A DNA stretch of 64,000 nt. Origin: an uncultured bacterium (GTDB lineage Bacteria > Patescibacteriota > Kazan-3B-28). A program made the position numbers and the translations under genes. This document shows, piece by piece, positions 7,879 to 62,824 of this stretch. Positions within the stretch are counted from its first letter, which is position 1. Each line of letters starts with the position of its first letter. Below the pieces are notes generated by a model. The model had not been told where the DNA came from and ran no database searches. It saw only the letters and a program-made list of their open reading frames with translations. The stretch covers positions 207,424-271,423 of the forward strand of contig OY968788.1 in NCBI GenBank assembly GCA_963695435.1, read 5' to 3'.

Positions 7879-8303
7879 ACTTATTTATTGGTGAGTATAA
7901 GCATCAGTTAGACGACAAAGGGAGACTTGCCATTCCTTCCAAGTTTCGCAGTCATTTGAAAAAAGGTGCAGTTGTAACGAAAGGACTCGACGGATGTTTG
8001 TTTCTTTACACGCCGGACGAGTGGAGCAAAGTGGCAGCGAAACTAACGCAAATGCCATTTTCTCAAGGTAATGCGCGCGCATTTGCACGATTGATGTTGG
8101 CGGGCGCGATGGCGGTTGATCTTGATTCGCAAGGCCGCATCAATTTACCAAAATATTTAATGCAATATGCAGGGTTGAAAGGTATTTCGATAATTGCAGG
8201 GCTTATGAACCGACTGGAATTCTGGAACGAAAAGAAATGGGAAGACTACAAGAAAAAAACTGAAAAAGAATCAGAAAAAATGGCAGAAGAACTCTTTGTC
8301 TAG
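7860..8303 (+). CDS. mraZ: Transcriptional regulator MraZ
   Basis: LFIGEYKHQLDDKGRLAIPSKFR matches the MraZ N-terminal consensus; first gene of the dcw cluster; true start may be the GTG at 7872. Confidence 0.85.
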   Translation: MEGKVDNLFIGEYKHQLDDKGRLAIPSKFRSHLKKGAVVTKGLDGCLFLYTPDEWSKVAAKLTQMPFSQGNARAFARLMLAGAMAVDLDSQGRINLPKYLMQYAGLKGISIIAGLMNRLEFWNEKKWEDYKKKTEKESEKMAEELFV

Positions 8304-8360
8304 AGAATAGAGATTAGGGAGTAGAGAGTAGAGACGAGAGAATAAATTTGAGAGTAATCC

Positions 8361-9841: not shown

Positions 9842-9961
9842 ACAGACTTCAGTCGATAGACTTATAGACGAATAGACAATAGAGGAATAGCCCTCTTTTT
9901 TTATTTCTCATCAGTCCATTAGTCCATGTGTCTATTGGTCAATCGTCTATAATGGGGAGGT

Positions 9962-11695
9962 ATGTTGGATAGAGCCACATCGTTGCAATTCGAACAACGG
10001 TTCCGAATTGGGGTGATCGCTTCCGTCTTTGGGCTGGCGTTTTTTTCGTTGATTTCAATGTTATTTCAGCGACAGGTTATTCAGTATCGTCATTATTCAG
10101 AGATGGCGCAGCAGCAGCATATCAATAGCCAGGTAGTGCCAGCGCAGCGGGGCAAGATATTAGTGGAGGACAGTGATAGTGAATTGTATCCGCTTGGAAC
10201 TAATGTGACTTTGTTTGCGCTGACTGTCGTTCCTGCACAGATTAAAAGGCCGGAACTGGTTGCCAGCAAACTGATGCCGTTTTTGTCGGGTGCAGGGATT
10301 GAGGAAAGCGATTTGATTACAAAGCTTTCTTCAAAATCAAAATACTTGCCGCCTCTAAAAAGGAAGATAGAAGAAAAAGAAGCGCAGGCAATTGCCGATT
10401 TGGATTTGACTGGTGTTTATCTGACGCCGGAGTTGTATCGTTATTATCCCGAAACAACAATGGCAGCGCAGGCGCTGGGATTTGTTAACCGCGACGGAAA
10501 AGGGCAATACGGCGTGGAGGGTTATTTGGATAAACAGCTTGGAGGCAAGGCGGGACTTCTCGAAGCGGAGCAAGATGTTTTTGGTCAGCAGATTGCGCTG
10601 GGCAAAAGGCAAAATGTTGACCCTGAAAACGGTTTGGATGTTGTGCTGACGCTTGATAGAGCAATTCAATATCAGGTGGAAAAGGCGCTGAAGGAAGCGG
10701 TAGAAACACATAAGGCGGACAAGGGGAGCGTGATAGTGATGGACCCAAAAACAGGAAAAATTCTTGCGATGGCGCAGTATCCCAACTTTGATCCGAACAA
10801 TTACAATACATCGGAACTGGAATTGTTTAATAATATGAATACTTCGCAGGTGTACGAGCCGGGCTCGGTATTCAAGGTAATCACAATGGCGGCGGGGATT
10901 GATGCCGGAGTGGTGGCGCCCAGCACGACCTATACCGATCCGGGTGAGGTGAAAATTAGCGACAGAACAATCAAAAACTCGGATAAAGTTTCGCACGGAG
11001 TTCAGACAATGACGCAGGTGCTGGAAAAATCTCTGAACACAGGTGCGATTTTTGTAGTGCAGAAATTAGGGAAAACAGCGTTCCGTAAATATTTGGAACA
11101 ATTTGGTTTCCTTGCGCCGACTGGTGTGGAAATAGCGGGGGAGGTGGCGGCTCAAGTAAAAACGCTTAGAAATTGGGGTGATGTTGATTTGGCGACAATG
11201 TCGTTTGGGCAAGGAATTGCAGTGACGCCAATTCAGATGCTTGCTGCAGTCGGCGCAATTGCGAATGACGGTAAATTGTTGCAGCCGCATATTGTGGACA
11301 GGATTTTGTATCCATCGGGCGCGGTTAGCATCGGGCCGGATGTGAAAGGACAGGCGATTTCCGCGCAGACTGCACAATTACTTTCAGCGATGATGGTGGG
11401 AGTGGTGGAACGTGGTCACGGTACAAAAGCAGGAGTAAAAGGATATTACATTGCAGGAAAAACGGGAACTGCGCAGATTCCTAATCCTAAGAGTGGGGGA
11501 TACATCGCGGAGGGAGTTGGCTCGACCATTGGTACTTTTGTAGGATTTGGGCCAGTAGAAAATCCCAAATTCGTGATGATTACCAGAATTGACCGGCCGA
11601 AAGATGTTGTTTATGCGGAAAGTTCAGCGGCGCCGTTGTTTGGTAAAATTGCGAAGTTTTTGCTCGACTATTGGAGGATTCCACCTACGCGGTAG
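9962..11695 (+). CDS. ftsI: Penicillin-binding protein 2 / FtsI transpeptidase
   Basis: PBP dimerisation region, SVFK (SxxK) and KTGTA motifs; TATAAT and GGGGAGG immediately upstream. Confidence 0.9.
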   Translation: MLDRATSLQFEQRFRIGVIASVFGLAFFSLISMLFQRQVIQYRHYSEMAQQQHINSQVVPAQRGKILVEDSDSELYPLGTNVTLFALTVVPAQIKRPELVASKLMPFLSGAGIEESDLITKLSSKSKYLPPLKRKIEEKEAQAIADLDLTGVYLTPELYRYYPETTMAAQALGFVNRDGKGQYGVEGYLDKQLGGKAGLLEAEQDVFGQQIALGKRQNVDPENGLDVVLTLDRAIQYQVEKALKEAVETHKADKGSVIVMDPKTGKILAMAQYPNFDPNNYNTSELELFNNMNTSQVYEPGSVFKVITMAAGIDAGVVAPSTTYTDPGEVKISDRTIKNSDKVSHGVQTMTQVLEKSLNTGAIFVVQKLGKTAFRKYLEQFGFLAPTGVEIAGEVAAQVKTLRNWGDVDLATMSFGQGIAVTPIQMLAAVGAIANDGKLLQPHIVDRILYPSGAVSIGPDVKGQAISAQTAQLLSAMMVGVVERGHGTKAGVKGYYIAGKTGTAQIPNPKSGGYIAEGVGSTIGTFVGFGPVENPKFVMITRIDRPKDVVYAESSAAPLFGKIAKFLLDYWRIPPTR

Positions 11696-12060
11696 CATTA
11701 TTTTTCTCTTTTTTCTTTTCGTCATTCTGGCTTGACCAGAATCTTATAGTATCTTTTTATGTTTTGTTTCAAGGGTCTGCGCGACCCTTGTACCGCGGTT
11801 ACTTTGTCTTGCCAAAGTAACCAAAGCGCTTGCCCACGTCGTCGGAACTATCAATTGGCAAAAATCATCTTTCCGCTAATGGTCGAAACTCGGTCGTAGC
11901 CACTCCCTCAAACATCTCCCCGCGGCGATGATTTTACTCAATTGATTACGTTCCTCCTCCTATGGCATGAAGACAGAAGGGAAAAGGCGACAATGGCGGA
12001 TAGAACAGGGGTGGCTAACTATTTATTGTCTGGGGGCGGTTTTTTGCGTATTATAGGAGA
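11696..12060 (+). repeat. Mosaic intergenic repeat element, locus L1 (modules M1-M2-M3-M4)
   Basis: ttttcttttcGTCAT + hairpin, gggtctgcgcgaccc palindrome, cggttactttg..caaagtaacc hairpin, ctaatggtcgaaactcggtcg, aatggcggatagaacaggggtgg; the same modules recur at 41.3, 57.9, 15.6 and 14.4 kb. Confidence 0.75.
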
Positions 12061-13293
12061 GTGAAAAAGTTCATACTCAATCTGTTTGGGTGGTTGGCGG
12101 GTCAGATTGCCCGTAAGTATCAGGTGAAGATAGTTGCCGTCACCGGAAGCGTGGGTAAGACCACTACCAAGGAGGCGGTGTTTGCCGTGCTGAAGCAAGC
12201 GTATCTAGTCCAGCGTAGTTTGTACAACGCCAACACCGAGTGGGGAATTACAGCGTCTGTAATCGACCCTGGATTTGAGCCATCGTTTACTGAATCGGGA
12301 AAAGCGCGGATAAGTTTGACGCAACTTGTCTCTTTGAAATTTAAGGGACTATGGAAATTAATAACGAAGCAAAATTATCCCGCCGTGCTGGTTTTGGAAA
12401 TGGCGGCGGACAGGCCAAATGATATTCGCTGGTTCAACCGCTGGTTTGATTATGATGTGGCGGTAATTACCACGATCGGTGATTCGCATTTGGAGTTTTA
12501 TAAAAGTCAGGAAGAACTGACAGCGGAAAAATTGTCGCTTACTAAAAAATTGAAACCGCGAGGGCTTGCGGTGATCAATGGCGGATGTGAAAGATGTCAG
12601 GGGTTGGTTTTGGCTGATTCACAAAGAAAAGTGACCTTTGGGTGGAACGAGCAAAGTAACTATTGGGCGGAAACGACGGGAGAAAGTAATTATATTTTGC
12701 ACAGTCCTGCAGATAAATTTGAAGTGAAGTTGCCTGTGGGGCGTCAATTTGTACCGGCGGCGCTGGTTGCCTTTGCGGTGGGAGAGGAGTTTGGACTGAC
12801 GGCAGAACAAATCAAAAAAGGGCTGGAAGAATTTCAGCCAATCAGTGGTCGTTTCCAAATTCAACACGCTCCTATGTGGACTATTATTGATGACACTTAC
12901 AATGCCAGTCCTGAATCGATGCGATTGGCGCTGATGAGCTTGAAAGATGTTGCGCGGGGCAGAAAAGTTGCGATTTTGGGTGGTATGAGAGAGCTCGGGA
13001 GTGCGACTGAAGAAGGGCACCGACAAGTAGGACAGTGGGCGGCGAAACAAGTTGGTCTACTTATTGTAGTAGGCAAAGATGCCGAGTTGATTGCGGAGGG
13101 TGCAATATCGGCTGGGATGTTGCAGGAAAATGTAGTAAAAATTTCGTGGGATGAAAATAATCCCAGTGTTGATTCGGCTATCTCCCAGATTTTGCCCATA
13201 TTAGAGGAAGGTGATACCGTATTAGTAAAGGCCTCTCGAGCGTTGCATTTGGATCGCTTGGTGGAGAGATTGTCGGCACAAAAGAAGATTTAG
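12061..13293 (+). CDS. murF: UDP-MurNAc-tripeptide--D-alanyl-D-alanine ligase (short N-terminus)
   Basis: GSVGKTTTKE P-loop already at residue about 29; C-terminus ..GDTVLVKASRAL is MurF-like; directly upstream of mraY; GTG start. Confidence 0.7.
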   Translation: MKKFILNLFGWLAGQIARKYQVKIVAVTGSVGKTTTKEAVFAVLKQAYLVQRSLYNANTEWGITASVIDPGFEPSFTESGKARISLTQLVSLKFKGLWKLITKQNYPAVLVLEMAADRPNDIRWFNRWFDYDVAVITTIGDSHLEFYKSQEELTAEKLSLTKKLKPRGLAVINGGCERCQGLVLADSQRKVTFGWNEQSNYWAETTGESNYILHSPADKFEVKLPVGRQFVPAALVAFAVGEEFGLTAEQIKKGLEEFQPISGRFQIQHAPMWTIIDDTYNASPESMRLALMSLKDVARGRKVAILGGMRELGSATEEGHRQVGQWAAKQVGLLIVVGKDAELIAEGAISAGMLQENVVKISWDENNPSVDSAISQILPILEEGDTVLVKASRALHLDRLVERLSAQKKI

Positions 13294-13294
13294 T

Positions 13295-14326
13295 ATGTCA
13301 GAAACCCTTCTCCAAACAGAACTTTTACGGGTATTCATTATCTCGATGATAGGGTTTTTTGTAGCCCTTCTCGCAACGCCCTTTTGGGCGAATTTTTTAT
13401 TTAAATACCGTTTTTGGAAAAAGCCAAAAGAGGAAACTTTGTACGGTACTCAAGCGACTGTGTTTCAACAATTGCATGGAGAAAAACATCGGCGGAATAT
13501 TCCGACAATGGCGGGAATTTTGTATTGGCTGATCGTGATTTTGGTTTCGCTGAAATTCAATCTTACTCGCTCGCAAACTTATTTGCCGTTATTTGCGCTT
13601 TTGTCGGTTGGTATTATCGGTGCAATTGACGATTGGTTTAATATTCGCGGAATTGGCGGAGTGAAAGGAATTCGGGCGCGGCACAAAATGCTGTGGCTTT
13701 TTGTAGTGGCGGGGCTTGGGGCATGGTGGTTTTTCTATAAGCTTGGTTTCAACGCATTTCATTTTCCCGGAGTCGGAGACTTCATTGTGGGTTGGTGGTA
13801 TATCCCGATTTTCATTTTTGTGATTCTGGCGGTGGCGAATGCTTTCAATATTACTGATGGACTAGACGGACTTTCGGGTGGTTTGTTTATAATCGCTTTC
13901 AGCTCTTACGGCGTATTGGCGCTGGTGAACAATCAAGTGAGTTTGGCGATTTTCTGCGGAACGGTTGTGGGAGTATTGCTGGCTTATCTTTGGTTCAATA
14001 TCTTCCCTGCCCGATTCTTCGGAGGGGATACTTATGCGCTGGCGTTTGGTGCCACTCTAGGTGTGGTTGCGATGTTGATTAAAGGCGGGGTGGGAATGGC
14101 GGTGCTTCCGTTCGTTGCTTTTATTCCAATGATTGAAACTTTTTCCGTTTTGCTTCAGCTGGTATGGCGCAAAGTGTATAAACGCAAACTATTCTTGATT
14201 GCGCCATTACATCATCATTTTGAGGCGATTGGTTGGCCGGAGCCGAAAGTGACGATGAGATTTTGGGTGATAGGGGCTGCGCTAGCGACAATCGGAGTCG
14301 TAATCGGAATGTTGGGAGCCGTGTAG
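13295..14326 (+). CDS. mraY: Phospho-N-acetylmuramoyl-pentapeptide transferase
   Basis: NAFNITDGLDGL and about 10 TM helices. Confidence 0.9.
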   Translation: MSETLLQTELLRVFIISMIGFFVALLATPFWANFLFKYRFWKKPKEETLYGTQATVFQQLHGEKHRRNIPTMAGILYWLIVILVSLKFNLTRSQTYLPLFALLSVGIIGAIDDWFNIRGIGGVKGIRARHKMLWLFVVAGLGAWWFFYKLGFNAFHFPGVGDFIVGWWYIPIFIFVILAVANAFNITDGLDGLSGGLFIIAFSSYGVLALVNNQVSLAIFCGTVVGVLLAYLWFNIFPARFFGGDTYALAFGATLGVVAMLIKGGVGMAVLPFVAFIPMIETFSVLLQLVWRKVYKRKLFLIAPLHHHFEAIGWPEPKVTMRFWVIGAALATIGVVIGMLGAV

Positions 14327-14329
14327 TTT

Positions 14330-14639
14330 TTCTTTTTGGTTTTTTTATTCTTTTTCTTTAATTTGTTTTTGTTCTAAACGGGCACATCCCCGTTTAATCG
14401 GATGGGTTCTTTTTGCTTGTCCAAAAAGAACCACAAAAAAGACACTCCACTCACAAATATGCTATCCAAAATAGAAAATCACCCTTTCTGGACTATACGC
14501 TATACTCCTCGCCTACGGCTCGTCAAACAGACGCTATCCATACCGGCTGATTTTCTAATTGGATAACGCAATTTGCTCGATGGGATGGGGAAGAAAGCGA
14601 CAATGGCGGAGGAAGACAGGGGTGGGGTATAATTCAAAC
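14330..14639 (+). repeat. Mosaic intergenic repeat element, locus L2 (modules M5 and M4)
   Basis: ctttctggactatacgctatactc..acgctatccataccgg shared with 58.1 kb; gcgacaatggcggaggaagacaggggtgggg shared with 11.98 kb. Confidence 0.7.
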
Positions 14640-15350
14640 ATGGAACTAAGAGATAAGGTTATTATTATCACGGGGAGTAGCGATGGTATAGGTCGCCAGA
14701 TAGCTTTGAGGTTGGCTCTGCACCAACCAGTTTTGGCATTGGTGTCTCGAGATGAAGAAAGGTTAGCGGAAGTGAAAGAAGAAGTGGAGAAGGTAGGAGC
14801 TAAAAAGGTTCAAATTTATCCTTGCGATATTCGTGATACTAAGCGTTTAGACGAGACAACTCGGCGTATTATTTCAGACTTAGGTGAGGTAGATGTACTT
14901 ATTAATAATGCGGGGATTTGGCATAAGCGAGGATCTATTGAAGAGTTAGGCGCGGACTTGGTAGATGATGTTATCCAGACTAATTTAATTGGGGCTATTC
15001 ATTTGACTAGATTGATTTTGCCCTATCTCAAGAAACAGCCAGAGGCGGCAATTATTAATGTTGTGTCTAAGTCTGGGCTGGTAGCGCAAGAAGGACAATC
15101 GGTTTATTCGGCTAGCAAATATGGTCTAAGAGGATTTACAGATGTTCTTAAGGAGGATTTGAAAGATTCAAATGTGAAAGTAGCTGGTGTCTATCAAGGA
15201 GGAGTCAACACACGACTTTTTGCTAAGGCAGGTGAAGAGGGAGTACCGACAGAAACATTTACGGACCCTGCTGATTTAGCAGATGTAATAGTGTTTATGC
15301 TAACTCGGCCTCCTCGGATATGGTTACATGATGTTGAGATAGGACGATGA
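14640..15350 (+). CDS. SDR family oxidoreductase
   Basis: IIITGSSDGIGRQIA Rossmann motif, YSASKYG catalytic motif; TATAAT at 14628-33 only 6 nt before the ATG (possibly leaderless). The ORF track start at 14559 lies inside a repeat module. Confidence 0.8.
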   Translation: MELRDKVIIITGSSDGIGRQIALRLALHQPVLALVSRDEERLAEVKEEVEKVGAKKVQIYPCDIRDTKRLDETTRRIISDLGEVDVLINNAGIWHKRGSIEELGADLVDDVIQTNLIGAIHLTRLILPYLKKQPEAAIINVVSKSGLVAQEGQSVYSASKYGLRGFTDVLKEDLKDSNVKVAGVYQGGVNTRLFAKAGEEGVPTETFTDPADLADVIVFMLTRPPRIWLHDVEIGR

Positions 15351-15379
15351 GTTTAAATTGAGAAAGGAAAGACTAAATT

Positions 15380-15532
15380 ATGAACAAGTGGGTGTGGATA
15401 GGAATCATTATCATTGTTCTGCTGGCGATTTTGCGGTTTTGGACGCCAGAGGATACTTGGATATGTCAAAACGGCCAGTGGCTGAAACATGGGAACCCGA
15501 CGGCGGATATGCCGTCGAGGGTTTGTAAATAA
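15380..15532 (+). CDS. Small membrane protein (50 aa)
   Basis: RBS aaaggaaag, hydrophobic MNKWVWIGIIIIVLLAILRFW.., stop at 15530-32; hairpin gctgactgccgtcagc after it. Confidence 0.3.
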   Translation: MNKWVWIGIIIIVLLAILRFWTPEDTWICQNGQWLKHGNPTADMPSRVCK

Positions 15533-15948
15533 ATTTTGTATTGCTGACTGCCGTCAGCTAGGACCGAGCGCCAAATCGCGCTCGACCGATTCCCGCTTTG
15601 GCAAGGCATAAGCGGGACAAATCGCCGGCCTGCGGCTTCAGGTCTATTCAATGGCAAAATTGCCTTTCCACTAATGGTCGAAACTCGTCGCTTGCCAGCT
15701 CCTCAAACATCTCCCCGTGGCGGCAATTTTGCTCATTTCAGTACGACCTTACGCCGAAAGGCCGAGAGAAAAACAAAGGGCAGGCTCCAATGGCGGATAG
15801 AGGAGGGGGGAAATCTTGACTGGGAGCGGGTTTTCTGCTACCTTGGGGGTGTAGACGATTGTGCCTACCCAACCCTGAGGAGGCGGTTCACCCGCAAGCT
15901 CCGGAAACCGGAGAGCCTCGCAGATAGTTGGTTTGAAAAGGAGACTTC
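15533..15948 (+). repeat. Mosaic intergenic repeat element, locus L3 (modules M7-M3-M4-M6), leader of DGR1 target
   Basis: gaccgagcgccaaatcgcgctcgaccgatt + hairpin, ctaatggtcgaaactcg, aatggcggatagaggagggggg, cttgactgggagcgggttttctg. Confidence 0.7.
15816..15844 (+). promoter_or_regulatory. Promoter TTGACT-N17-TACCTT with GAGCGGGTTTT spacer (copy 3 of 4), about 105 nt upstream of the DGR1 target
   Basis: cttgactgggagcgggttttctgctacctt, almost identical to 58219-58247. Confidence 0.5.
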
Positions 15949-16843
15949 AATGGATAAGAAGTCAATTACTGCGGCTCAAATCAAGCAAATTGTGGGCTTT
16001 GTTCGCGATGTTGTCTCAACGCTTGGTTTGGGATTCTCTCAAGTGCAGGCGTTCATCAGTGATGCCAATCAGGTGGCTAAGTTCAAGGAGGGAATCAAAA
16101 ACCTTCTGCAGGAAATGATTGCTTCCAATCCGTTTGCTAAGGAGCGGGTCAAGCAGGCTTGGTTCTATCCAAAGAACTGGAAGTCCAAGAGCATAAGTGA
16201 GCAACTGGTCAAGCTCACCGACCTTTTCCAGAGTATCGACTTATCGCAGGTCGAAGCTTTGATGGATAAGGTGATTGTGCAGAAGCTCGCTGATGGCGTC
16301 GTCATCCTCCCCAAGCTCTCGTTCTTGGCTAAACTGTGGAGTATACCTGATCCCTATGGGGAAGGTTATGGTTTTGTCTGCGAGAAGCTATTCGGGCGCA
16401 TTGCCGTTAGCCGTGCTTTCTACAACTACCGAGCTGGGCAAATGGATGCGAAGCATATTCGTATCCATCAAGAAGTTCGCAACTTGCTGGAAAAGTTGGA
16501 AGCGGAGACTCCGGGTGATGTTCTCGTCTTGCCCTTCGACTTCGGGGGGTTATATGCGGGATGGAGCCCGCGAGCTGCTCGGTGGGAAGCACTGAACAAT
16601 AGTCAGCTTCCGCTGATTACGGCTCAAGTCGCTTGCCTTTTGCTGACTATGCCGGATCGACTTACCACTTGGGAGCAACTCTTTATTGACTGCTCTGGCG
16701 ATGAATGGGACTGGCTCGCTGTCGGCTGCTGGGCGGATTGCCCGTGCTTCGACTTCCGCAGCGGCGAGCTTTTGTTCGACGACGGGGGCGCTGGCTACGC
16801 CGGTGGCCGCGATGGGTCGGCGGTGGCTTTTCTCGGAGTGTAG
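15949..16843 (+). CDS. DGR1 variable (target) protein; C-terminal 43 codons are the VR
   Basis: RBS aaaggagact then ATG; C-terminus ..AVGCWADCPCFDFRSGELLFDDGGAGYAGGRDGSAVAFLGV is encoded by VR1; the ORF track upstream extension (15674) lies in the repeat/promoter region. Confidence 0.8.
16711..16839 (+). repeat. DGR1 variable repeat (VR1)
   Basis: 129 nt aligned to TR1 with 23 differences, 22 at TR adenines; 3' 39 nt identical (IMH-like GC-rich end). Confidence 0.9.
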
Positions 16844-16894
16844 CGACTTGGGGATTGGTCATTGCAACTTTTGAACATTGCGTTTGCTTTTCAG

Positions 16895-16924
16895 AGCGGC
16901 GGGTGGAAACACCCGCCGCTTTTT
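16895..16924 (+). terminator. Rho-independent terminator / GC hairpin about 55 nt downstream of VR1
   Basis: agcggcgggtg gaaa cacccgccgct tttt. Confidence 0.65.
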
Positions 16925-17154
16925 GCTGTAAAATACTTATGAAAGTAGGCAGTGAGATTAAGTTTACGGACTTAGTCCGCCGAAATTGTGTCACAAGCAC
17001 TGGCTAGAGTTCGGTAAAAATATTTTGCCGAAGAATGCCAACTTGAGAATTAGACACTCCTTGCCTCTCGCAAGTTTGAGGGTAAAACCCCCGTATAAAA
17101 TACAGCGAAGCTATGATTTTAGCTCGCAGTGGTGCGGATAGTGTAGAGGCAATG

Positions 17155-17283
17155 CTGGAACGCTGACGGCAACTGGGCGAATTGCCCGTACTTCAACTTC
17201 AACAACGGCGAGCTTAAGTTCGACAACAGGGACGCTGACTACGCCAATGACAACTATGGGTCGGCGGTGGCTTTTCTCGGAGT
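17155..17283 (+). repeat. DGR1 template repeat (TR1)
   Basis: A-rich AAC-codon-rich copy of VR1; differs from VR1 essentially only where TR has A. Confidence 0.9.
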
Positions 17284-17285
17284 TG

Positions 17286-17600
17286 CTAATTTTCTAAACT
17301 GCGTATCCATCCGCCTAGCATACGGCCAATCTCTTGCAGAATCGTTTCGAGTGCGAGATATCGTTTTTGATCAAGAGAGTTGATGTCGAATGATAGGCGG
17401 ATTAGCAGTTTCAAAATATCCAGTTCGGCATTACTGGCAGTTAGATAAGTTCGTCTTGCACTTTTTTCTGTTCTGGTGGCTATAGTAACGGAATATAGCA
17501 AGTCGAGTGTCTTGGTTTGAATGATTTGACCGAGAGAATACTTCTCGGACTTGGGGAACTTTTGTACAGTGTCATGAAGAAGTCGGTAAAATTCATACAA
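17286..17600 (-). CDS. avd: DGR accessory variability determinant (Avd), four-helix-bundle protein
   Basis: 104 aa; C-terminus ..LQEIGRMLGGWIRSLEN resembles Bordetella phage bAvd ..EVGRILGSWIARV; member of the 23S rRNA-IVS four-helix-bundle family; abuts TR1. Confidence 0.8.
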   Translation of the reverse strand: MYEFYRLLHDTVQKFPKSEKYSLGQIIQTKTLDLLYSVTIATRTEKSARRTYLTASNAELDILKLLIRLSFDINSLDQKRYLALETILQEIGRMLGGWIRSLEN

Positions 17601-17634
17601 TTTCAGAACAATCGGGATTTCTCCAAATCCGTCC

Positions 17635-17645
17635 GGGGGGGGGGG
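17635..17645 (+). repeat. G11 homopolymer inside the RT1 5' region
   Basis: gtccGGGGGGGGGGGttagt; separates an upstream ATG (17574, different frame) from the RT frame. Confidence 0.9.
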
Positions 17646-17710
17646 TTAGTGGGAAAGTTATTTTCCATAACGGCGTTTTCTCCGAAATAATTTCATTAGA
17701 GAATTTATTT

Positions 17711-18685
17711 TTGGCTTGGGCTGAATTTCGCAAAGGCAAACGAAATAAACCGGATGTCCAAGCGTTCGAGCTTCATCTTGAAGATAACATATTCGCTCTT
17801 CGCGAGGATTTGGTGAGTGGCAATTATCGGCACGGTGACTATCATCAATTTCGTATTTCTGACCCCAAACCTCGAGTGATTAGTAAGGCATCTGTTCGGG
17901 ATAGATTATTACATCGTGCTATTCATCGGGTTTTATATCCGATTTTTGATAAGACTTTTATCTTCGATAGTTATTCTTGTCGAGATAACAAAGGTACTCA
18001 TCGGGCATTTTGGCGTTTGGCACAAATGACTCGCAAAATCTCTGAAAATTACACTCGACCTTGTTATGCTTTGAAATGCGACATTCGAAAATTCTTCGAC
18101 AGCATTGATCATCAAATATTATTCGGTCTGTTGGAAGACCGCATAGCGGACGAAAAGTTGCTGAAGTTGCTTCGAGATATTATCGGGAGTTTTGAACATT
18201 CTCCAGGCAAGGGAATGCCTTTGGGTAATCTGACCTCTCAACTTTTCGCCAATATTTATATGGATCCGCTAGATAAGTTTGTAAAACACCAGCTCAAAGC
18301 CAAATATTATTTGCGTTATGCGGATGATTTTATTTTCTTGTCAGATAATCCAGACGAGCTAATGGGTTATTTAGTCGAGGCGAATCATTTTTTGAAAACT
18401 AAACTGAAACTCAATATTCACCCAAACAAAATTTATCTTAGAAAACTGAAATGGGGAATTGATTATGTCGGCTATGTGGTTTTGCCACATTACAATCTGC
18501 CGAGGAGAAGAACGGTCGAAAGAATCAAGAAAAAACTGAAGAGCAGTTTGGCAATGGGTGATTTTGAGTCGGTTGCTGGGGCTATGCCGTCATATCTTGG
18601 CTACTTGGGTCATGCTAATGCTTATAAACTTCAGAAAAGTTTGTTGCGTAAAATAAATGAGGGGAATAATGTTGCCAAATATTGA
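17711..18685 (+). CDS. DGR1 reverse transcriptase (frame is open from 17525; annotated TTG start truncates the conserved N-terminus)
   Basis: RT motifs: ASVRDRLLHRAI, FIFDSYSCRDNKGTHRA, ALKCDIRKFFDSIDH, LGNLTSQLFANIYM (DGR-type GxxxSQ rather than intron QGxxxSP), YADDFIFL. Confidence 0.85.
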   Translation: MAWAEFRKGKRNKPDVQAFELHLEDNIFALREDLVSGNYRHGDYHQFRISDPKPRVISKASVRDRLLHRAIHRVLYPIFDKTFIFDSYSCRDNKGTHRAFWRLAQMTRKISENYTRPCYALKCDIRKFFDSIDHQILFGLLEDRIADEKLLKLLRDIIGSFEHSPGKGMPLGNLTSQLFANIYMDPLDKFVKHQLKAKYYLRYADDFIFLSDNPDELMGYLVEANHFLKTKLKLNIHPNKIYLRKLKWGIDYVGYVVLPHYNLPRRRTVERIKKKLKSSLAMGDFESVAGAMPSYLGYLGHANAYKLQKSLLRKINEGNNVAKY

Positions 18686-20106: not shown

Positions 20107-20194
20107 AGATACAGTATAGATGAATAGAGAGTAGAGAGTAGAGAGTAGGGGTGGCTTCGAGGTATAATGGGCATGAACAATATTTGTATAACTT

Positions 20195-22706: not shown

Positions 22707-22791
22707 TCTGGGAGCCGATTTTTGAGCAGACCTACCCTTGAATTGGAGGGGGTTTTCTGGTAAGCTCACCGCAAGCAGAAGAGACTCATAA

Positions 22792-23835
22792 ATGGAAAGA
22801 TTTAGGGGATTAGAACAGGCACCAACTCAAATAATAGAAGACGAGAAGAATCTCGCCTCGGGTTTTGAGGAATCTTCTGATACGGGTGGGAACGGGAAGA
22901 AATCGGAAGTGCCAGTATTGGAATATCCGCAAAGAAGCTCCGAAGAGTATAAAATTGCTGACGAGAATAAAAAGATGGAGAGTGTTTTGGAGTTTTACTC
23001 GAGCATAATAAAAGACAGCCCTTTATTAACCGCTATCCAGGAGAAGGAGTATGTCCAGATGTTCCAGCAGGGCAACCTGGCAGAGAAAGAACTAGCTCAA
23101 AAGATATTAATTGAATCCAATTTGGGATGGGTCATAAAAGTGGCTCGTTCTTATGTTCGACCGGATGCTCCCTTAGAGGATTTGATCCAAGAGGGGATAA
23201 TGGGGCTGGTTTATGCGGCGGGAAAATTTGATGAAGAAAGAGGTTGCCGGTTCTTGACCTTTGCTACGGATTTAATTAGAAATAGAATTTTGGACTATCT
23301 CACAAATAGAGCCGATATAGTTAGAAAGCCCGAGCATATAGTGGGCAAGATTGGTCAATTCAAAAAAGCAGATGAAAAGCTAGGGAGGGAACTCGGTCGG
23401 GATCCAAATGATCAAGAATTGGCTGATTATTTGGGGGTAGAAAAAGAAAAAGTTCAGGGGTTAAAATTATGGTCTGCGCTGGTTGATTTTTCCTATACTA
23501 TTCCGGTTGAGGAAGGGGGGCAGAGTTTACCAAAGATAGCATTGATTGAGGATCAGAACAGTGGAAAAGAGGAGAAAGTTTTGATAATGCGTAAAAGTCT
23601 TGAAGAGATTTATGCAGTTGCTGGGTTAACCAAAAGAGAAAGGGAACTCCTGGTTTCTTATTACAATGCTAAGGATAGAAAAAATTCAAATACATATGAA
23701 GAGATAGGCAGGCAACATGGTTTGAGAAAGGGGGGAGTTACCCAAACGATAGTAAGGGCAAGAAGAAAGATAAGAATTTGTTTGGCGAAGCACCCTGAGT
23801 GGGCAGATGCTATCAATGAGCTGGGGAACGAGTAG
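22792..23835 (+). CDS. RNA polymerase sigma-70 family factor (RpoD-like)
   Basis: Region 2 LIESNLGWVIKVARSY..DLIQEGIMGLVYAAGKFD..FLTFATDLIRNRI; region 4 HTH near the C-terminus. Confidence 0.85.
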   Translation: MERFRGLEQAPTQIIEDEKNLASGFEESSDTGGNGKKSEVPVLEYPQRSSEEYKIADENKKMESVLEFYSSIIKDSPLLTAIQEKEYVQMFQQGNLAEKELAQKILIESNLGWVIKVARSYVRPDAPLEDLIQEGIMGLVYAAGKFDEERGCRFLTFATDLIRNRILDYLTNRADIVRKPEHIVGKIGQFKKADEKLGRELGRDPNDQELADYLGVEKEKVQGLKLWSALVDFSYTIPVEEGGQSLPKIALIEDQNSGKEEKVLIMRKSLEEIYAVAGLTKRERELLVSYYNAKDRKNSNTYEEIGRQHGLRKGGVTQTIVRARRKIRICLAKHPEWADAINELGNE

Positions 23836-33184: not shown

Positions 33185-33322
33185 ACCAATACAAAATACA
33201 AAATCAGCAAATCAGCAAATAAAAATATTTTATAAGATTCTGGACAAGCCAGAATGACGACATTTCCACTCGTCACTCGCGACTCGTAACTCGTTACTTA
33301 TTCTTAATTTTTAATTACTCGT

Positions 33323-37914: not shown

Positions 37915-38822
37915 TGGGTAATAAATTACCGTTTCTACTGCAGGGACTATTCGTAGTATTCCTGTGGTCGGCGTCAAAGATTGTAATGAAAATCGGATTG
38001 GAAGAAATCCCGCCGTATTTTTTTGCTGGTTTATTACAATTATTAGTTTTTGTTCTTTTATTGATTTACACATGGTGGCAAAGAAAGAAATATTCATTCA
38101 AGCTTTCGGCGAAAGATAAATATGTAGCGGTTTTGTCAGGAATTGTGGGTGATGGCGCGGCGATTTTATTTTCAATGATCGGTTTGCAGTATGTGACGGG
38201 TGCTACTGCAGGTTTGATTGCGGCTACTAGTATTATTTTTGCTCTATTGATGGCGGGAATTCTGCTTAGGGAAAAACCGCGCTTGGAACAGTATTTTGGT
38301 ATTGCGGTGCTGGTTGCTGGTGTTGGAGTGTTTTTGGGTAATCAAGTCTTGGGCGGAACATTGTTGGGAGTTGGGATATTGCTTGTGGCGGAAGCGGCGT
38401 ATGCGTTTCATGCCGCAACAAATAGGATGATTTCAAAAACTCACAAGCAGGATATAAGTTTGCCATTAGCTCTACTTGGCAGCGGAGTGGGTGCGCTGAT
38501 TTTGGTTCCTGTCGGATTACTAATGAATGGTGTGCCTAGGGTAGTGTGGGATAGCAGATTGATTTTGGGGATTTTGGCGGTGGCGCTGATATTTGTGTTC
38601 GGAGAACTAATTTGGAATGGTCTACTGGATAAGCTGCAGGTTTTCGAGCTTTCGATTTTGAGCAACACGATGATAATCCAAGTGGCAATACTTTCGGTCA
38701 TCTTTTTGAATGAAACAATAACTACGAATAATATTATGGGCGGGTTATTGGTTTTGCTGGGTGCGGTGGTAGTGGACGGGCGGATGATATTTCCACACGC
38801 TTTTGGGCTAAAGTTAGCGTAA
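37911..38822 (+). CDS. DMT (EamA-like) family transporter
   Basis: 10 TM helices in two 5-TM repeats. Confidence 0.55.
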   Translation: MMGNKLPFLLQGLFVVFLWSASKIVMKIGLEEIPPYFFAGLLQLLVFVLLLIYTWWQRKKYSFKLSAKDKYVAVLSGIVGDGAAILFSMIGLQYVTGATAGLIAATSIIFALLMAGILLREKPRLEQYFGIAVLVAGVGVFLGNQVLGGTLLGVGILLVAEAAYAFHAATNRMISKTHKQDISLPLALLGSGVGALILVPVGLLMNGVPRVVWDSRLILGILAVALIFVFGELIWNGLLDKLQVFELSILSNTMIIQVAILSVIFLNETITTNNIMGGLLVLLGAVVVDGRMIFPHAFGLKLA

Positions 38823-38827
38823 ATAAT

Positions 38828-38950
38828 CTCGGAGGGAAAAGACCAGAAAAAGGTCTTTTCCCTTCCGACGCTCCGACAAGTCGGAGCTGCCTCCCTTTTT
38901 CTAGGAGTTCGCAGTCCGAAGTAAATTCGAGACTGCTCACGGATTAGGAT
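38828..38950 (+). repeat. 120-nt three-hairpin repeat element, copy 1 (DMT-cysS spacer)
   Basis: ctcggagggaaaagaccagaaaaaggtcttttcccttccgacgctccgacaagtcggagctgcctccc..gcagtccgaa..ttcgagactgc..ggattagga; second copy at 56492-56611. Confidence 0.8.
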
Positions 38951-41321: not shown

Positions 41322-41850
41322 CGTTTGGCGTTTAGTTTTTTATTTTTCTTTTGTCATGCTTGAGTGAAACGAAGCATCTATAATGATGTTTCTTTTTTTA
41401 TTTTTCTTTTCAAGGGTCTGCGCGACCCTTGGCGGCGGGACCGAGCGCCGAATCGCGCTCGACCGATTGTCGCTTTGTCTTGGCAAAGCGACGGAAACCG
41501 CTTGCCCACGTCGTCGGAACTATCAATTGGCAAAAATCATCTTTCCGCTAATGGTCGAAACTCGGTCGGTCGCCGCGGCGACCTCCTTCAAACATCTCCC
41601 CGCGGTGATGATTTTACTCAATTGATTACGTTCTTCCTCCTATGGCGGGGGAAGACTTCATTCTAGATTCTAAATTCTAGATTCTAGATTCCAGATTCTA
41701 TCCTTGGGCTCCAATGGCGGAGGGAGAGGCGATGATTTCTCTTGCTCTTGATTTACCCCCCCAATCACTTAGAATGGGGGCGATTTGGCATCTTGAAATG
41801 TCGGTAAGGTAATCTCTGAAGAAAACATCCCTAAAGGAGGGAAAAGCTCG
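41322..41850 (+). repeat. Mosaic intergenic repeat element, locus L4 (M1-M7-M2-M3, tandem heptamers, M4)
   Basis: ttttcttttGTCATgcttgagtgaaacgaagcatc, gggtctgcgcgaccc, gaccgagcgccgaatcgcgctcgaccgatt, ctaatggtcgaaactcggtcg, ggctccaatggcggagggagagg. Confidence 0.75.
41661..41702 (+). repeat. Tandem heptamer (TTCTAGA)x6, imperfect
   Basis: ttctaga ttctaaa ttctaga ttctaga ttccaga ttctatc. Confidence 0.85.
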
Positions 41851-42283
41851 ATGAAACGGTTCTTCTTTCTGATTCTTCTGGTGTTGCTCCTTGTGAGTTG
41901 CGGCGGCGGCGGAAGACCGGGGATAGACAATACAACTCCTTTCTCCCCCGACGGTTAATCCACCCTACTTAAGTTATGTGGAGATCAGCCCTCCGCTTGT
42001 TGCGATTCCGGCTGGCGGTACATGTCAGTTCCATGCACGGGCCTTCGACGACGAGGGTAACCCTATGTATGGAATGTACGGAGGAGAAGAGTTGCGGTAC
42101 TGCTTTGCAAAAGCAGACGAGCTCAAAGGAAGCATCAATTCTGTAACTGGGTTGCTCACAGTGGCTGAAGATTGTCCACCGGGACGCTACGATGATGCGA
42201 TACATGTAGTCGCATACATCCCAAGTGGCCGAAATACTCCTACTGTTTATGCGGATGTGGTGGTTGTTGCGGAGTCACCGTAG
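41851..42283 (+). pseudogene. Lipoprotein signal peptide ORF (35 aa) and Big_2-like Ig domain ORF in different frames; probable single frameshifted gene
   Basis: MKRFFFLILLVLLLVSCGGGG lipobox ORF stops at 41956-58; Ig-like ORF (GTG 41978) frame is open back to 41927, so one +1 shift fuses them. Confidence 0.35.
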
Positions 42284-54731: not shown

Positions 54732-56486
54732 ATGGAAGAAAAGAAAAAAATAGTTTTACCAGCGATTATGACCGTCAATGAATTGGCGAGCTCTTTTAGT
54801 GTGCCAGTGACGGTGGTAATCAAACAGCTATTATCTAACGGTGTGTTGGCAACTATTAATGACAATATCGATTTTGAGACTGCGGCTATCGTAGCGGACG
54901 ATTTAGGTTACGAAGTGTCACAAAGTGAATCTCTCGCGGATACGGGAACAATTGCAGAAAAACAGGTTGAGGTTGGCGAGCCTAGAGCGCCCATTGTGAC
55001 GGTAATGGGGCATGTTGATCACGGAAAAACTTCCTTGCTGGACTATATTCGCAAGACCAAGATTACCGAAAAAGAATCGGGTGGAATTACCCAGCATATT
55101 GGAGCGTATCAGGCGGAATTCAAGGGCAGAAAGATTACTTTCTTAGATACGCCAGGGCACGAAGCATTTTCCGCGATTAGAGCGCAGGGAGCTAAAGTGA
55201 CGGATGTGGTTATTTTGGTGGTAGCGGCAGATGAAGGAATAAAACCACAAACTATTGAAGCGATTGAGCTGGCGAGAGCGGCAAATGTGCCGATTGTGAC
55301 AGCAATTACCAAAATTGACCGACCGGAAGCAAATATTATGCGAGTGGAACAGGAATTGGCTGCGCACAATATCGTAACGGAAAAATGGGGCGGAAAAGAT
55401 GTAATTATTGGTGTTTCCGCAAAATCCGGTGAAGGAGTGGATGAATTATTAGATTTAGTTTTACTAACTGCTGATTTACAGGAATTAAAAGCGCAAAAAC
55501 AAGTGTCTGCGTCAGGTTTTGTAATTGAAACAAAGCACGACCCCAAAGTTGGCTACACAGCAACATTATTAGTACACAACGGAACATTGAAGATTGGTGA
55601 TGCGTTTGTGGTTGGAATTCAGGCAGGCAAAGTGAAATCGATGGAAGATTATTTGGGCAAACGGGTGAAAGAAGCTGGTCCATCAATGCCGGTAAGGGTG
55701 ACGGGATTTGGTGCAGTGCCAAATGCAGGTGAGTTTTTTGAAGTAGTGGAAAGCGAAAAAGCAGCGCGGGAAATTTCACTTTCTAAATCAAAACAAGCTA
55801 CGGCGCGCAGAATTTCTGTCACATCATCCGATTTGTCCAAACTAACCGCGCAGATTCGCGCATCGCGTTCATCGCAAATTGCGGTGGTATTGAAGGCGGA
55901 TATGCAAGGCTCACTAGAGGCAATAAAAAACCAGTTGGCAAAAATCCGCACTGATAAAGGAGAAATCAAGATCATTGCCGAAGGTATCGGAAACATTAGC
56001 GAATCAGATGTTTTGGGCGCAGTAGGAGAAAAAGCGGTGGTAGTCGGTTTTAAGGTTGATGTATCACCATCTGCTGCCAGTATGGCGAAGAAAGATAAAA
56101 TTCAAATTTTGACTTACGACATTATTTATAATTTGACTGATGATCTGACAAAAATATTATTAGAATCGATTGAACCGGAAAAAATAGAAACCCAAGTGGG
56201 TAGAGCGACAGTGCTGAAAATTTTCCGTGATGATAGACATGAAAAAATTATCGGCATGAAAGTGGTGTCGGGGCGGATTACAGTTGGTAACATGGTGAAA
56301 TTTACTCGTGGAGAGGAAGAAATTGGTGAAGGTACGGTAAAACTGATTAAACATTTGACTGAAGATGTATCGGAAGCGACACCGGGAACAGATTTCGGTT
56401 TTCTAGTGGCAACTACGGCTAAAGTTCAGCCTGATGATGTGGCGGAATTTGTAAAAGTCGATTATAAAAAGGCAAAGTTGGTATAA
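54732..56486 (+). CDS. infB: Translation initiation factor IF-2
   Basis: G domain GHVDHGKTSLLD, DTPGHEAF, NKID; beta-barrel domains. Confidence 0.9.
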   Translation: MEEKKKIVLPAIMTVNELASSFSVPVTVVIKQLLSNGVLATINDNIDFETAAIVADDLGYEVSQSESLADTGTIAEKQVEVGEPRAPIVTVMGHVDHGKTSLLDYIRKTKITEKESGGITQHIGAYQAEFKGRKITFLDTPGHEAFSAIRAQGAKVTDVVILVVAADEGIKPQTIEAIELARAANVPIVTAITKIDRPEANIMRVEQELAAHNIVTEKWGGKDVIIGVSAKSGEGVDELLDLVLLTADLQELKAQKQVSASGFVIETKHDPKVGYTATLLVHNGTLKIGDAFVVGIQAGKVKSMEDYLGKRVKEAGPSMPVRVTGFGAVPNAGEFFEVVESEKAAREISLSKSKQATARRISVTSSDLSKLTAQIRASRSSQIAVVLKADMQGSLEAIKNQLAKIRTDKGEIKIIAEGIGNISESDVLGAVGEKAVVVGFKVDVSPSAASMAKKDKIQILTYDIIYNLTDDLTKILLESIEPEKIETQVGRATVLKIFRDDRHEKIIGMKVVSGRITVGNMVKFTRGEEEIGEGTVKLIKHLTEDVSEATPGTDFGFLVATTAKVQPDDVAEFVKVDYKKAKLV

Positions 56487-56491
56487 CACAA

Positions 56492-56611
56492 CTCGGAGGG
56501 ACAAGACCAGAAAAAGGTCTTTTCCCTTCCGACGCTCCGACAAGTCGGAGCTGCCTCCCTTTTCCAGGGAGTTCGCAATCCGAATTTAATTCGGATTGCT
56601 CACAGATTAGG
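56492..56611 (+). repeat. 120-nt three-hairpin repeat element, copy 2 (infB-rbfA spacer)
   Basis: Same sequence as 38828-38950 with compensatory changes in hairpin 3 (gcaatccgaatttaattcggattgc); ends in an AGGAG RBS for rbfA. Confidence 0.8.
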
Positions 56612-57928: not shown

Positions 57929-58353
57929 GTTTTTTATTGTTTTCTTTTTCTTTTTTGTCATTCCTGCGGAGGCAGGGATCCATTTTCTTTTTGTTTATTT
58001 TTTCAAGGGTCTGCGCGACCCTTGTACCGCGGTTACTTTCCGCTTGAGGAAAGTAACCAAAGTCGCTCCCCACTCACAAATTCATTTTCCAAAAAAGCAA
58101 AATATAACCTTTCTGGACTATACGCTATACTCGCTACGCTCAAACAACGCTATCCATACCGGTCAATTTTGCTATTGGAAATATGAATTTGCTCAATGGG
58201 TATCGGGGAGGGGAAAGCTTGACTGGGAGCGGGTTTTCTGGTATCCTGCGGGTGTAAGGTGGACCCTGTGATTTTTAGGGAAATACCCCACCAGTACCTT
58301 GAAGACTAGCCGACACAAGTTAGCCTATAAGGTATTAGTAAAAGGAGACTGGG
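57929..58353 (+). repeat. Mosaic intergenic repeat element, locus L5 (M1-M2-M5-M6), leader of DGR2 target
   Basis: ttttcttttttGTCATtcctgcggaggcaggga, gggtctgcgcgaccc, cggttactttc..gaaagtaacc, ctttctggactatacgctatactc, cttgactgggagcgggttttctg. Confidence 0.75.
58219..58247 (+). promoter_or_regulatory. Promoter TTGACT-N17-TATCCT with GAGCGGGTTTT spacer (copy 4 of 4), about 107 nt upstream of DGR2 target
   Basis: cttgactgggagcgggttttctggtatcct. Confidence 0.5.
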
Positions 58354-58995: not shown

Positions 58996-59342
58996 TCTTT
59001 GGGACTTGGGATCTTGGGTCTTCGGATCCTTTACCCTTGGTCCTTTGGCCGCGCTCTCCGGAGTGCGGCCTCTTTTTATGTTTCAAATTTGGTAAACTAT
59101 CCGTGGAACTAGGCGAATATGCCAGAGATTACGGTTTCTGGCTGCCGAACCCAGTATCCATACAATGAGAGTATTCCTGATTAAGATTTGGAATAGAGGG
59201 TTGTATGTAGAAACTTCAAAAAATGAAGATACTTGGTGTGAGATGTTCTGACATTATAGATGTCGAATAAAATACAATCCTAAGACTTCTGCTCCAAAAG
59301 CGGAATCAAGGGGTGGTGCTTACGGATAATATCTCGCACGAA

Positions 59343-59462
59343 TCGCAACTCGGACGGCAACCTGTATGTCCGTTACCTCAACTGGAACGGTGACAGGTGG
59401 AACTGGAACTACAATTGGCTCGACAACGATTGGAACGACAACAACCCTGCTGCTGTTCTCGC
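59343..59462 (+). repeat. DGR2 template repeat (TR2)
   Basis: AAC-rich copy of VR2 between the target gene and avd2. Confidence 0.9.
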
Positions 59463-59470
59463 TACTATCC

Positions 59471-62684: not shown

Positions 62685-62824
62685 CGTGTCTAGGGTTAGA
62701 GAATAGAGAGTAGAGAATAGAGAATAAGGCGTGGAGCTTAGGATATAGGATAAGAAAAAATACTCTCATCTCTACGCTCTCGTCTCTAAATCTACAAGGG
62801 GCATTATAGGGGATTGAGAGCGGC

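Follow-up and report, generated by a model that had tools for sequence, protein, structure and literature searches.

What are the hairpin-rich sequences that recur between genes in a 64,000-nucleotide stretch of the genome of an uncultured bacterium of the Kazan-3B-28 lineage (contig OY968788.1, positions 207,424 to 271,423; this whole stretch is hereafter the window), and what keeps their folds intact? Patescibacteria (candidate phyla radiation), to which this lineage belongs, have tiny genomes with little non-coding room, and to our knowledge very few structured elements have been described in them. A first, sequence-only reading had listed seven modules, M1 to M7, shared in different combinations by five intergenic loci (here A to E), and had interpreted them mainly as leaders of the genes that follow. 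Our own answer, to which we assign a probability of about 0.42, is that the five loci are copies of one ordered composite unit specific to the Kazan lineage of Patescibacteria, and that this unit is a structured RNA element co-transcribed with the upstream gene as its 3′ end. The existence of the unit, its conservation, fold and position, and its non-membership of known families are matters of observation; its transcription, a protein partner and its role are what we infer from them.

Exact motifs were counted in the window and compared with shuffled or expected values, alongside a repeat search of the same sequence. Two 16-mers of the M3 module, TAATGGTCGAAACTCG (11877, 15672 and 41549) and CTCAAACATCTCCCCG, have three exact matches each; the 19-mer AAGGGTCTGCGCGACCCTT likewise occurs three times (11771, 41412 and 58005), where shuffles expect none, and the M4 motif CAATGGCGGAKRG eight times against 0.32 expected, among others at 11991, 14601, 15788 and 41712. 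The repeat search independently picked up the M3, M5, M7 and M6 families, and none of these modules was found in the remaining long intergenic regions of the window. Every module that had been listed was found where it had been placed, far above chance, and the inverted fragment reported at 33.24 kb is a GTCAT hairpin on the opposite strand (33236-33258). The modules as such stood, but their separateness did not: PK1 is one motif whose variants had been listed as the M1 palindrome and as the first half of M7, H2 is one hairpin whose variants had been listed as M2 and as the second half of M7, and M3 and M5 share a single long-hairpin architecture, of which they form two subtypes. The list was also incomplete, since locus B has in addition a PK1 (14376-14404) and an H2 (14405-14432). 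Sorted in this way, the whole unit, of about 300 nt, starts a few nucleotides past the stop codon of the upstream gene and runs through a T-rich tract, none to two GTCAT-palindrome-ATC hairpins, PK1, H2, a small G+C-rich segment, M3 or M5, and then H5 and one to three short M4 motifs around CUCCAAUGG, before a promoter (M6) or a convergent gene is reached.

Evidence for selection on structure comes from the long irregular hairpin, which measures 110-145 nt whether it is of the M3 or the M5 subtype and whose window copies fold with z-scores of about -4 to -6.5. In an alignment of 34 M3 sequences, the helices P2-P3-P4 were compared with controls in which the 3′ partners had been slid by 1-3 columns, and with 500 shuffles. 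Standard pairs fill 84.7% of the cells, as against 32-42% in the slid controls, 14 of the 20 pairs have changed on both sides, and the covariation score is 0.355, compared with at most 0.119 when slid and a value reached by 0 of the 500 shuffles; an earlier alignment of 18 sequences gave the same picture and supports P1 as well. The two stretches of M3 that look like conserved loops face each other and co-vary in divergent copies, GGUCGA/UCUCCC being replaced by AGACCA/UGGCCU, GGCA/UGCC or CCGC/GCGG, and the motifs AAACUC and UCAAACA beside P5 are fixed even there. P5 itself, also a hairpin, spans 7-28 nt, and its sequences are unrelated among copies; in L005 and L013 (L numbers designate related loci outside the window) one more hairpin is inserted. 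Some 25 bases of the core stay invariant across genera, amid stems that vary. A coding function of the M3 core was considered and rejected, as the lengths of P5 differ by non-multiples of three and the copy of locus D shifts the frame.

PK1 is a hairpin with a 5-7-bp stem. Four bases located 3-5 nt past this stem, beyond a linker such as GACC or AACC, can pair with the final four bases of its loop. Thirteen distinct variants were recovered, with eight different four-base loop/partner sequences, and all 13 form 4/4 pairs; taken together, the variants pair at 39 of 52 positions when the offset is the preferred one and at 6-20 when it is another. With loop lengths of L1 = 2 and L3 = 4, PK1 may be described from its sequence as a compact, H-type pseudoknot-like motif of 26-30 nt. 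H2 is a hairpin of 9-12 bp, and all 36 examples examined fold with 8-12 Watson-Crick pairs despite their unlike sequences. Pairing has been kept through compensatory changes, which argues, as the sequence-only reading had held, that the modules are under structural selection and are not neutral debris; copies are not identical but covary, and no match to a known insertion sequence terminal repeat was found.

To learn how widely the element occurs, a gapped-pattern scan for M3 was made with one genome per species. It returned 15 true copies in ten assemblies, all of them of candidate division Kazan or Patescibacteria, two copies being in the complete 602-kb genome CP011216; the remaining two pattern matches (Mesorhizobium and Gallionellaceae) are chance, as are the only two matches of the M3 16-mer in viral contigs, which lie inside coding sequence. 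A slightly altered pattern applied to a metagenome collection added 21 new M3 copies, giving 39 distinct ones in all, from Kazan/Patescibacteria assemblies and from groundwater or sediment metagenomes. A covariance model, R1, built from 34 M3 copies, scores the three M3 copies of the window at 96-114 bits and nothing else in it above 17 bits, and in related loci it recovered seven further copies, divergent ones in which the search pattern is missing; a profile of M5 found copies in four further loci (L019, L020, L026 and L011). R1 gives M5 13 bits, which is not significant, and the kinship of M3 and M5 is concluded instead from their shared architecture, from the common AAACUC-P5-UCAAACA motif and from a bridging copy, L011:6151-6311, matched by both models. 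The element overall is present in about two to five copies per genome of ~0.6-0.7 Mb, and canonical M3 in two to three per complete genome of that size, which makes it a low-copy family.

As regards known RNAs, a Rfam 15 scan of the window at gathering thresholds returned tRNA-Gln only, and PK1, H2, M3, M5 and M4 match no Rfam 15 family. When 11600-16000 and nine related loci were scanned at permissive E-values, no consistent match fell on the units; weak FtrB matches fell on GTCAT hairpins of the NTS type (described below) only and were discarded. A literature search for Kazan intergenic repeats, or for structured RNAs in the candidate phyla radiation, returned nothing relevant. PK1, H2 and M3/M5 are a genuine new family of strongly covarying structured elements, confined to the Kazan clade and absent from Rfam.

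The features of the five loci, and of one lone hairpin, are as follows; the strand is given where one was assigned, and NTS and SRM stand for the Neisseria Transformation Sequence and the broader class of Ssn-related motifs.

Locus A, 11696-11720 and 11744-11770: T-rich tracts around the hairpin that follows in this list
Locus A, 11721..11743, + strand: NTS/SRM-like hairpin GTCATTCTGGCTTGACCAGAATC, with CGTCAT...ATC flanks as in published NTS (PMC11893778)
Locus A, 11771..11797: PK1, stem AAGGG/CCCTT, loop CGCG pairing with CGCG past the linker GTAC
Locus A, 11797..11822: H2 (M2), GGTTACTTTG-TCTTGC-CAAAGTAACC
Locus A, 11844..11952: M3 long irregular hairpin, P1-P2-P3-P4-P4b, AAACUC/UCAAACA loop and P5; R1 score 106.8 bits
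Locus A, 11991..12003, + strand: M4, CAATGGCGGATAG, a motif match
Locus A, 12026-12054: promoter-like site upstream of murF
Locus B, 14376..14404: PK1 variant, stem AAACGGG/CCCGTTT, loop CATC pairing with GATG downstream
Locus B, 14405..14432: H2 variant, GGTTCTTTTTG-CTTGTC-CAAAAAGAACC, read directly from the sequence
Locus B, 14442..14599: M5 long hairpin domain; nhmmer profile E = 6e-46, fold z -4.1 (+ strand) and -6.6 (- strand)
Locus B, 14601-14613: M4, followed by a TATAAT box upstream of the short-chain dehydrogenase (SDR) gene
Locus C, 15566..15591: PK1 (first half of M7), stem GAGCGC/GCGCTC, loop AATC pairing with GATT downstream
Locus C, 15592..15616: H2 (second half of M7), CCCGCTTTGGCAAGGCATAAGCGGG
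Locus C, 15640..15747: M3 long hairpin; R1 score 113.8 bits
Locus C, 15747-15770: H5, with a GCC-GAAA-GGC hairpin
Locus C, 15788-15800: M4
Locus C, 15815..15846, + strand: M6 promoter, TTGACT-N17-TACCTT, of the first diversity-generating retroelement (DGR) target gene
Locus D, 41353..41378, + strand: NTS/SRM-like hairpin GTCATGCTTGAGTGAAACGAAGCATC
Locus D, 41412-41430: PK1-type palindrome without a downstream partner
Locus D, 41443-41468: complete PK1
Locus D, 41469..41492: H2, GTCGCTTTGTCTTGGCAAAGCGAC
Locus D, 41516..41632: M3 long hairpin with a longer P5; R1 score 96.3 bits
Locus D, 41660-41700: tandem repeat of 7 nt, ATTCTAG x5.9, between M3 and M4
Locus D, 41712-41724: M4
Locus E, 57957..57980, + strand: NTS/SRM-like hairpin GTCATTCCTGCGGAGGCAGGGATC
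Locus E, 58005-58031: PK1
Locus E, 58031-58058: H2, GGTTACTTTCC-GCTTGA-GGAAAGTAACC
Locus E, 58065..58213: M5 long hairpin domain; nhmmer E = 4e-43
Locus E, 58218-58249: M6 promoter, directly after M5
Lone hairpin, 33236..33258, - strand: NTS/SRM-like, GTCATTCTGGCTTGTCCAGAATC, between dnaX and dnaB; an identical hairpin is present in L012 and L039

To which gene does such a unit belong? Pfam places locus A between a penicillin-binding protein transpeptidase gene (ftsI) and murF, locus B between mraY and the SDR gene, locus C between a small open reading frame (ORF) and the first DGR target gene, locus D between a DUF5671 gene and a lipoprotein-like ORF, and locus E between a DHH phosphoesterase gene and the second DGR target gene; the rest of the window consists of housekeeping genes. 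The downstream genes named by the sequence-only reading (murF, SDR, both DGR targets and a lipoprotein) are in agreement with Pfam, and the idea of 5′ leaders, riboswitches or attenuators acting on them has in its favor that all five window loci precede co-oriented genes, that the folds are strong and conserved, and that in L004 the unit runs straight into the ribosome-binding site of folD, whose start codon lies 10 nt from the unit end. Nevertheless, a promoter stands between the unit and the next gene in loci C and E (TTGACT-N17-TGGTAT at 15815 and 58218) and also in L008, L012 and L029, so that the units there lie upstream of the next promoter. What they are attached to is the 3′ end of the gene before them: when neighbor orientation was assigned by a crude longest-ORF rule, the left neighbor was co-oriented with the unit in 27 of 31 cases; among the 35 units with a called right ORF, 23 were followed by a co-oriented gene and 12 by a convergent one, L014 and L035 being examples of units between convergent genes. 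The proteins encoded next to the units belong to unrelated families, the downstream genes share no function, and no Rfam riboswitch was matched. A role specific to DGRs was rejected by tblastn searches with the reverse transcriptase (RT), Avd and both target proteins, in which a homologue of a target adjoins a unit at just one further locus, L009. The downstream promoters, the unrelated neighbors and the convergent genes together argue leader and riboswitch functions away, and we consider such functions very improbable.

The same facts, together with a few others, are what recommends a 3′-end element. Two units of L035 sit tail to tail between convergent genes, with 12 nt separating them, and each points the same way as its own gene. 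Orientation thus goes with the upstream gene, and a coupling to the direction of replication is rejected. In L004, the folD ATG 10 nt after the unit means that the gene strand must be transcribed across the unit. The units are not syntenic between relatives in the loci compared: in L012, from a close relative of the window, the unit sits at a synteny break, and one orthologous gene has an M3 unit after it in L005 and L029 and an M5 unit in L019. Orientation, position and reshuffling agree with a 3′-terminal element of transcription units whose copies are rearranged as they recombine with one another. We suggest that the unit would be transcribed as the tail of the mRNA of the upstream gene, where it could form a folded RNA domain whose invariant internal loop would probably serve as the docking site of a putative conserved protein. 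Possible roles would be in RNA processing, in stabilization or in insulation at the boundary between transcription units, with no leader function for the downstream gene. The modules are exchanged mosaically between loci and are embedded beside NTS-type hairpins.

Some further features of the neighborhoods are recorded here. A conserved protein of ~90-125 aa (HLHSELH..VDEARTLFGET..GSF.FYLGFFKRLG) is encoded to the left of the unit in L007, L019, L021 and L039. The hairpin AACGGCTC-loop-GAGCCGTT occurs near units in L007, L017, L020, L024 and L033; in places a U or A tract accompanies it, and it is a possible terminator. In L005 and L029 the M3 unit is preceded, at a distance of ~0.7 kb, by a 5S rRNA gene (119-235 and 1279-1395, respectively), with NTS-type hairpins and a small membrane-protein gene between the two. 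The M6 promoter motif is also found at 22737-22762, with its spacer GGGTTTTCTGGTA kept, upstream of the sigma-70 gene (22792-23835), so that M6 looks like a strong housekeeping promoter type of the lineage. The lipoprotein-like ORF past locus D (41852-42283) has a signal peptide with an LVSC lipobox and a stop after 36 codons; a second ORF, 41978-42283, follows it, and the gene could be split or frameshifted.

Which strand folds is a separate question. We lean slightly toward the gene (mRNA) strand and leave the remainder to its complement; the loop lengths of PK1, the GAAA tetraloop of H5 and the genomic context speak for the former. Several facts weigh against this choice and against the 3′-end proposal. 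Among the non-Watson-Crick cells of the gene strand, C.A combinations outnumber G.U ones by 16 to 3 in P3, 24 to 4 in P4 and 28 to 10 in H2, which keeps an internal A.C in several lineages, although the excess lies mostly at three junction positions whose status as genuine pairs is uncertain, and this weakens the case for the complement. On the gene strand the invariant loop shows A.C and pyrimidine-pyrimidine oppositions. The complement has G.U wobbles and tandem G.A in their place, and there the conserved core forms one uninterrupted helix that contains tandem G.A and UUUG/CGAG wobbles; the divergent copy L007:1447 is a perfect helix with one G.U on the complement and an A.C on the gene strand. 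The element is moreover C-rich on the gene strand, with a GC skew of -0.24 over all 34 copies against a mutational background of +0.40 at the fourfold-degenerate sites of genes. Finally, T-rich DNA precedes rather than follows PK1, H2, M3 and M5, only the GTCAT hairpin having a loose T-rich tail, and as the element lacks a U-tract, and the window has canonical terminators at other places, a role as a simple terminator is unlikely. As to the window itself, nearly all of its genes lie on one strand, and its GC skew is +0.19 overall, rising to an unusually strong +0.40 at fourfold-degenerate positions of + strand genes.

Most of these points would be expected if the functional fold were that of the strand complementary to the flanking genes, either as an antisense RNA or as single-stranded DNA recognized by a structure-specific protein; in the DNA version the unit would be a nuclease or recombinase site at gene ends, like attC or NTS, that promotes the exchange of gene blocks. 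RNAalifold energies are lower on that strand (M3, -24.2 as opposed to -14.5 kcal/mol; M5, -36.5 as opposed to -24.3), H2 loops are purine-rich there, units are found where synteny breaks and replace one another at orthologous sites (L012 compared with the window; M3 of L005 compared with M5 of L019), and they are accompanied by NTS/SRM hairpins, whose active form is single-stranded DNA (PMC11893778). Raw minimum free energies that favor the minus strand (18/18 and 33/39) proved in a dinucleotide-shuffle control to be mostly a matter of composition and were dropped as strand evidence for that reason; shuffle-controlled z-scores are nearly equal for the two strands of M3 (-3.10 and -3.26) and moderately different for M5 and H2. 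A scan for sigma-70-type promoters on both strands around 39 units gave no recurrent antisense promoter, room for one is lacking in L004 (folD ATG at 10 nt) and L035 (units 12 nt apart), and conservation stops at the right edge of the unit. Orientation by the upstream gene instead of by replication is hard to tie to exposure of single-stranded DNA, the proteins scanned in the window include no recombinase, transposase or GIY-YIG gene product, attC core sites are absent, and the flanks are housekeeping genes of the dcw cluster and not cassettes. We hold a complement-strand fold, antisense RNA and single-stranded DNA taken together, to be doubtful, and more specifically regard structure-specific single-stranded DNA (or cDNA) sites at gene 3′ ends, with pairing selected on the complement, as distinctly improbable. 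If that were true, it would mean an attC-like or NTS-like recognition system marking the boundaries of block exchange, or of incoming-DNA processing, in Patescibacteria.

What, then, are the GTCAT hairpins that accompany the units? A full-text search with the commonest variant led to the NTS, CGTCATTCCCGCGMAVGCGGGAATCYRG, and to the broader SRM class, which is widespread across phyla and whose members are oriented palindromes, 20-50 nt long, preceded by a conserved CGTCAT as 5′ flank and followed at once by a C (...ATC); small GIY-YIG nucleases (SsnA) bind and cut these hairpins as single-stranded DNA, and a cd10448 GIY-YIG (Ssn) gene is typically flanked by such repeats (PMC11893778). Judged from its sequence, the GTCAT...ATC hairpin of M1 resembles this already described type: the architecture is present in the hairpins at 11721, 41353 and 57957 (+ strand) and 33258, 60445 and 60466 (- strand), and 45 distinct GTCAT hairpins occur in the related loci. 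The canonical Neisseria core GTCATTCCCGCGCAGGCGGGAATC has a single window copy, at 60445 on the minus strand, the other window hairpins being four NTS-like variants. The published degenerate pattern HGTCWYN(0-2)YYVSBRHN(0-5)WNVSBRGN(0-2)RNCYNB matches that copy and one probable chance site in the window, and not the hairpins at 11721, 41353, 57957 and 33258, which are therefore NTS-like but outside the published pattern. The three differing M1 hairpins, which had been taken for compensatory evolution of one site, are different variants of a widespread repeat class, and that class covers M1 only and not PK1, H2, M3, M5 or M4. On the strand bound by Ssn, T.G outnumbers C.A by 5 to 1 in the GTCAT hairpins, which provides a calibration for a strand-specific fold. 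No GIY-YIG (Ssn) signature was found in six-frame translations of the window and of ~300 kb of related loci, nor among the Pfam-scanned window genes.

One NTS copy has entered a gene. A canonical NTS hairpin and a partial second copy lie at 60418-60468, inside the second DGR RT gene (59873-60940), where the insertion amounts to an in-frame 17 aa (CLGLDSRLRGNDKEGRGNDG) relative to the 81%-identical paralogue at 17711-18685, and recalls the in-frame insertions of palindromic elements in Rickettsia. The two DGR cassettes, 15950-18685 and 58354-60940, share the order target gene, template repeat, bAvd on the opposite strand and reverse transcriptase, with variable repeats at 16711-16839 and 58868-58988 and template repeats at 17155-17283 and 59342-59462; the two RT genes have a common stretch of 300 nt with 97% identity. 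The first cassette lies in a block of ~10.5 kb that interrupts the dcw cluster between mraY and murD. Other repeats in the window include a 120-nt direct repeat (38810-38929 and 56474-56593, 88% identity), situated past the EamA transporter and IF-2 genes, which contains the hairpins GGGAAAAGACC...GGTCTTTTCCC and CCGACAAGTCGG and is a separate intergenic family unrelated to the modules studied here, and short purine-rich repeats (TAGAGARTAGAGA...; CGATAGACTTATAGAC...) in the intergenic stretches 8300-8345, 20117-20148 and 62696-62727 and also at 193-226 and 9854-9879.

Another possibility is that the units are selfish or recombination-promoting repeat arrays like the Neisseria intergenic mosaic elements (NIMEs) or the REP/BIMEs of E. 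coli, made of hairpins that a dedicated enzyme spreads and homogenizes, and that their conserved structure would be a by-product. The mosaic with NTS-type hairpins is indeed as in NIMEs, where dRS3 flanks RS units (PMC1797815), and the many distinct GTCAT hairpins of the related loci, the non-syntenic position of units between relatives and the proximity of some units to hypervariable genes (two DGR targets and a lipoprotein) point the same way, as do recombinant copies such as L005, which joins a 5′ half of the A type to a 3′ half of the C type and so combines two M3 lineages. Against this stand the low copy number and the ~25 core bases that stay invariant across genera as stems vary; no transposase or nuclease gene lies nearby, and a search of the window and the fetched loci found no transposase or recombinase. 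The window copies differ from each other by compensatory changes, and winA is nearest to the L012 and L029 copies and winC to L004, rather than to each other, which suggests old lineages kept by selection and not recent spread. The earlier suggestion of repeats like miniature inverted-repeat transposable elements (MITEs) fails on grounds of structure, as conserved terminal inverted repeats with a variable interior are not found; the stems covary and the center is invariant, the reverse of a MITE. We think it improbable that the units are selfish repeats.

How does the Kazan unit compare with systems already described? Orphan structured non-coding RNA motifs and aptamers such as preQ1-I share with it covarying helices around invariant internal-loop bases, a P5 of variable length, an optional inserted hairpin (L005, L013) and, in PK1, a short-loop pseudoknot of 26-30 nt; unlike them, the unit is not in a 5′ untranslated region, has several paralogues per genome near unrelated genes, shows no evident association with a ligand or gene, and has no Rfam 15 match. 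Integron attC sites likewise follow directly on an ORF in fixed orientation to it, conserve their stem structure above their sequence, and resemble the unit in their bulged bases, in a terminal hairpin that varies and perhaps in folding on the strand opposite the coding one, but the Kazan flanks are core housekeeping genes and the long invariant internal loop is absent from attC; attC core sites (RYYYAAC/GTTRRRY) were not seen on inspection of P1/P2, and no tyrosine recombinase, and so no integron integrase, was among the scanned window proteins. The REP/BIME sequences of enterobacteria are also imperfect palindromes just past genes, arranged in mosaics and transcribed in mRNA 3′ ends, as is proposed for the Kazan unit, yet they measure ~35 nt, a genome holds hundreds of them, their sequences differ from species to species and their orientation alternates, whereas the Kazan elements are multi-helix domains of 110-145 nt with an invariant core conserved across a clade. 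A ~300-nt family conserved by covariation across a clade and lacking a Rfam entry offers a testable RNA or single-stranded DNA target in an uncultured lineage, and poses the puzzle that its mismatch types favor the strand opposite to the one that context marks as transcribed.

Among described systems, the closest counterpart of the Kazan mosaic is that of the NIMEs, in which dRS3 hairpins, a shorter core of the NTS hairpins, flank ~100 families of RS units of 50-150 bp (PMC1797815). Both are intergenic mosaics of an NTS/dRS3-type hairpin with units of 50-150 nt in several families and varying combinations, and both are linked to rearrangement points and partly to variable surface genes. They differ in that NIMEs are of high copy number, with arrays of hundreds of copies, are reported to be Neisseria-specific and have RS units not known to be structured, whereas the Kazan units are of low copy number, ordered, oriented with the upstream gene and structurally covarying across genera. 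The units also usually bear GTCAT hairpins on one side only, unlike the RS units of NIMEs, and the exact dRS3 (ATTCCC-N8-GGGAAT) occurs in the window only in the NTS inside the second RT gene. Mosaics around NTS-type hairpins that resemble those of Neisseria exist, on this evidence, far outside that genus.

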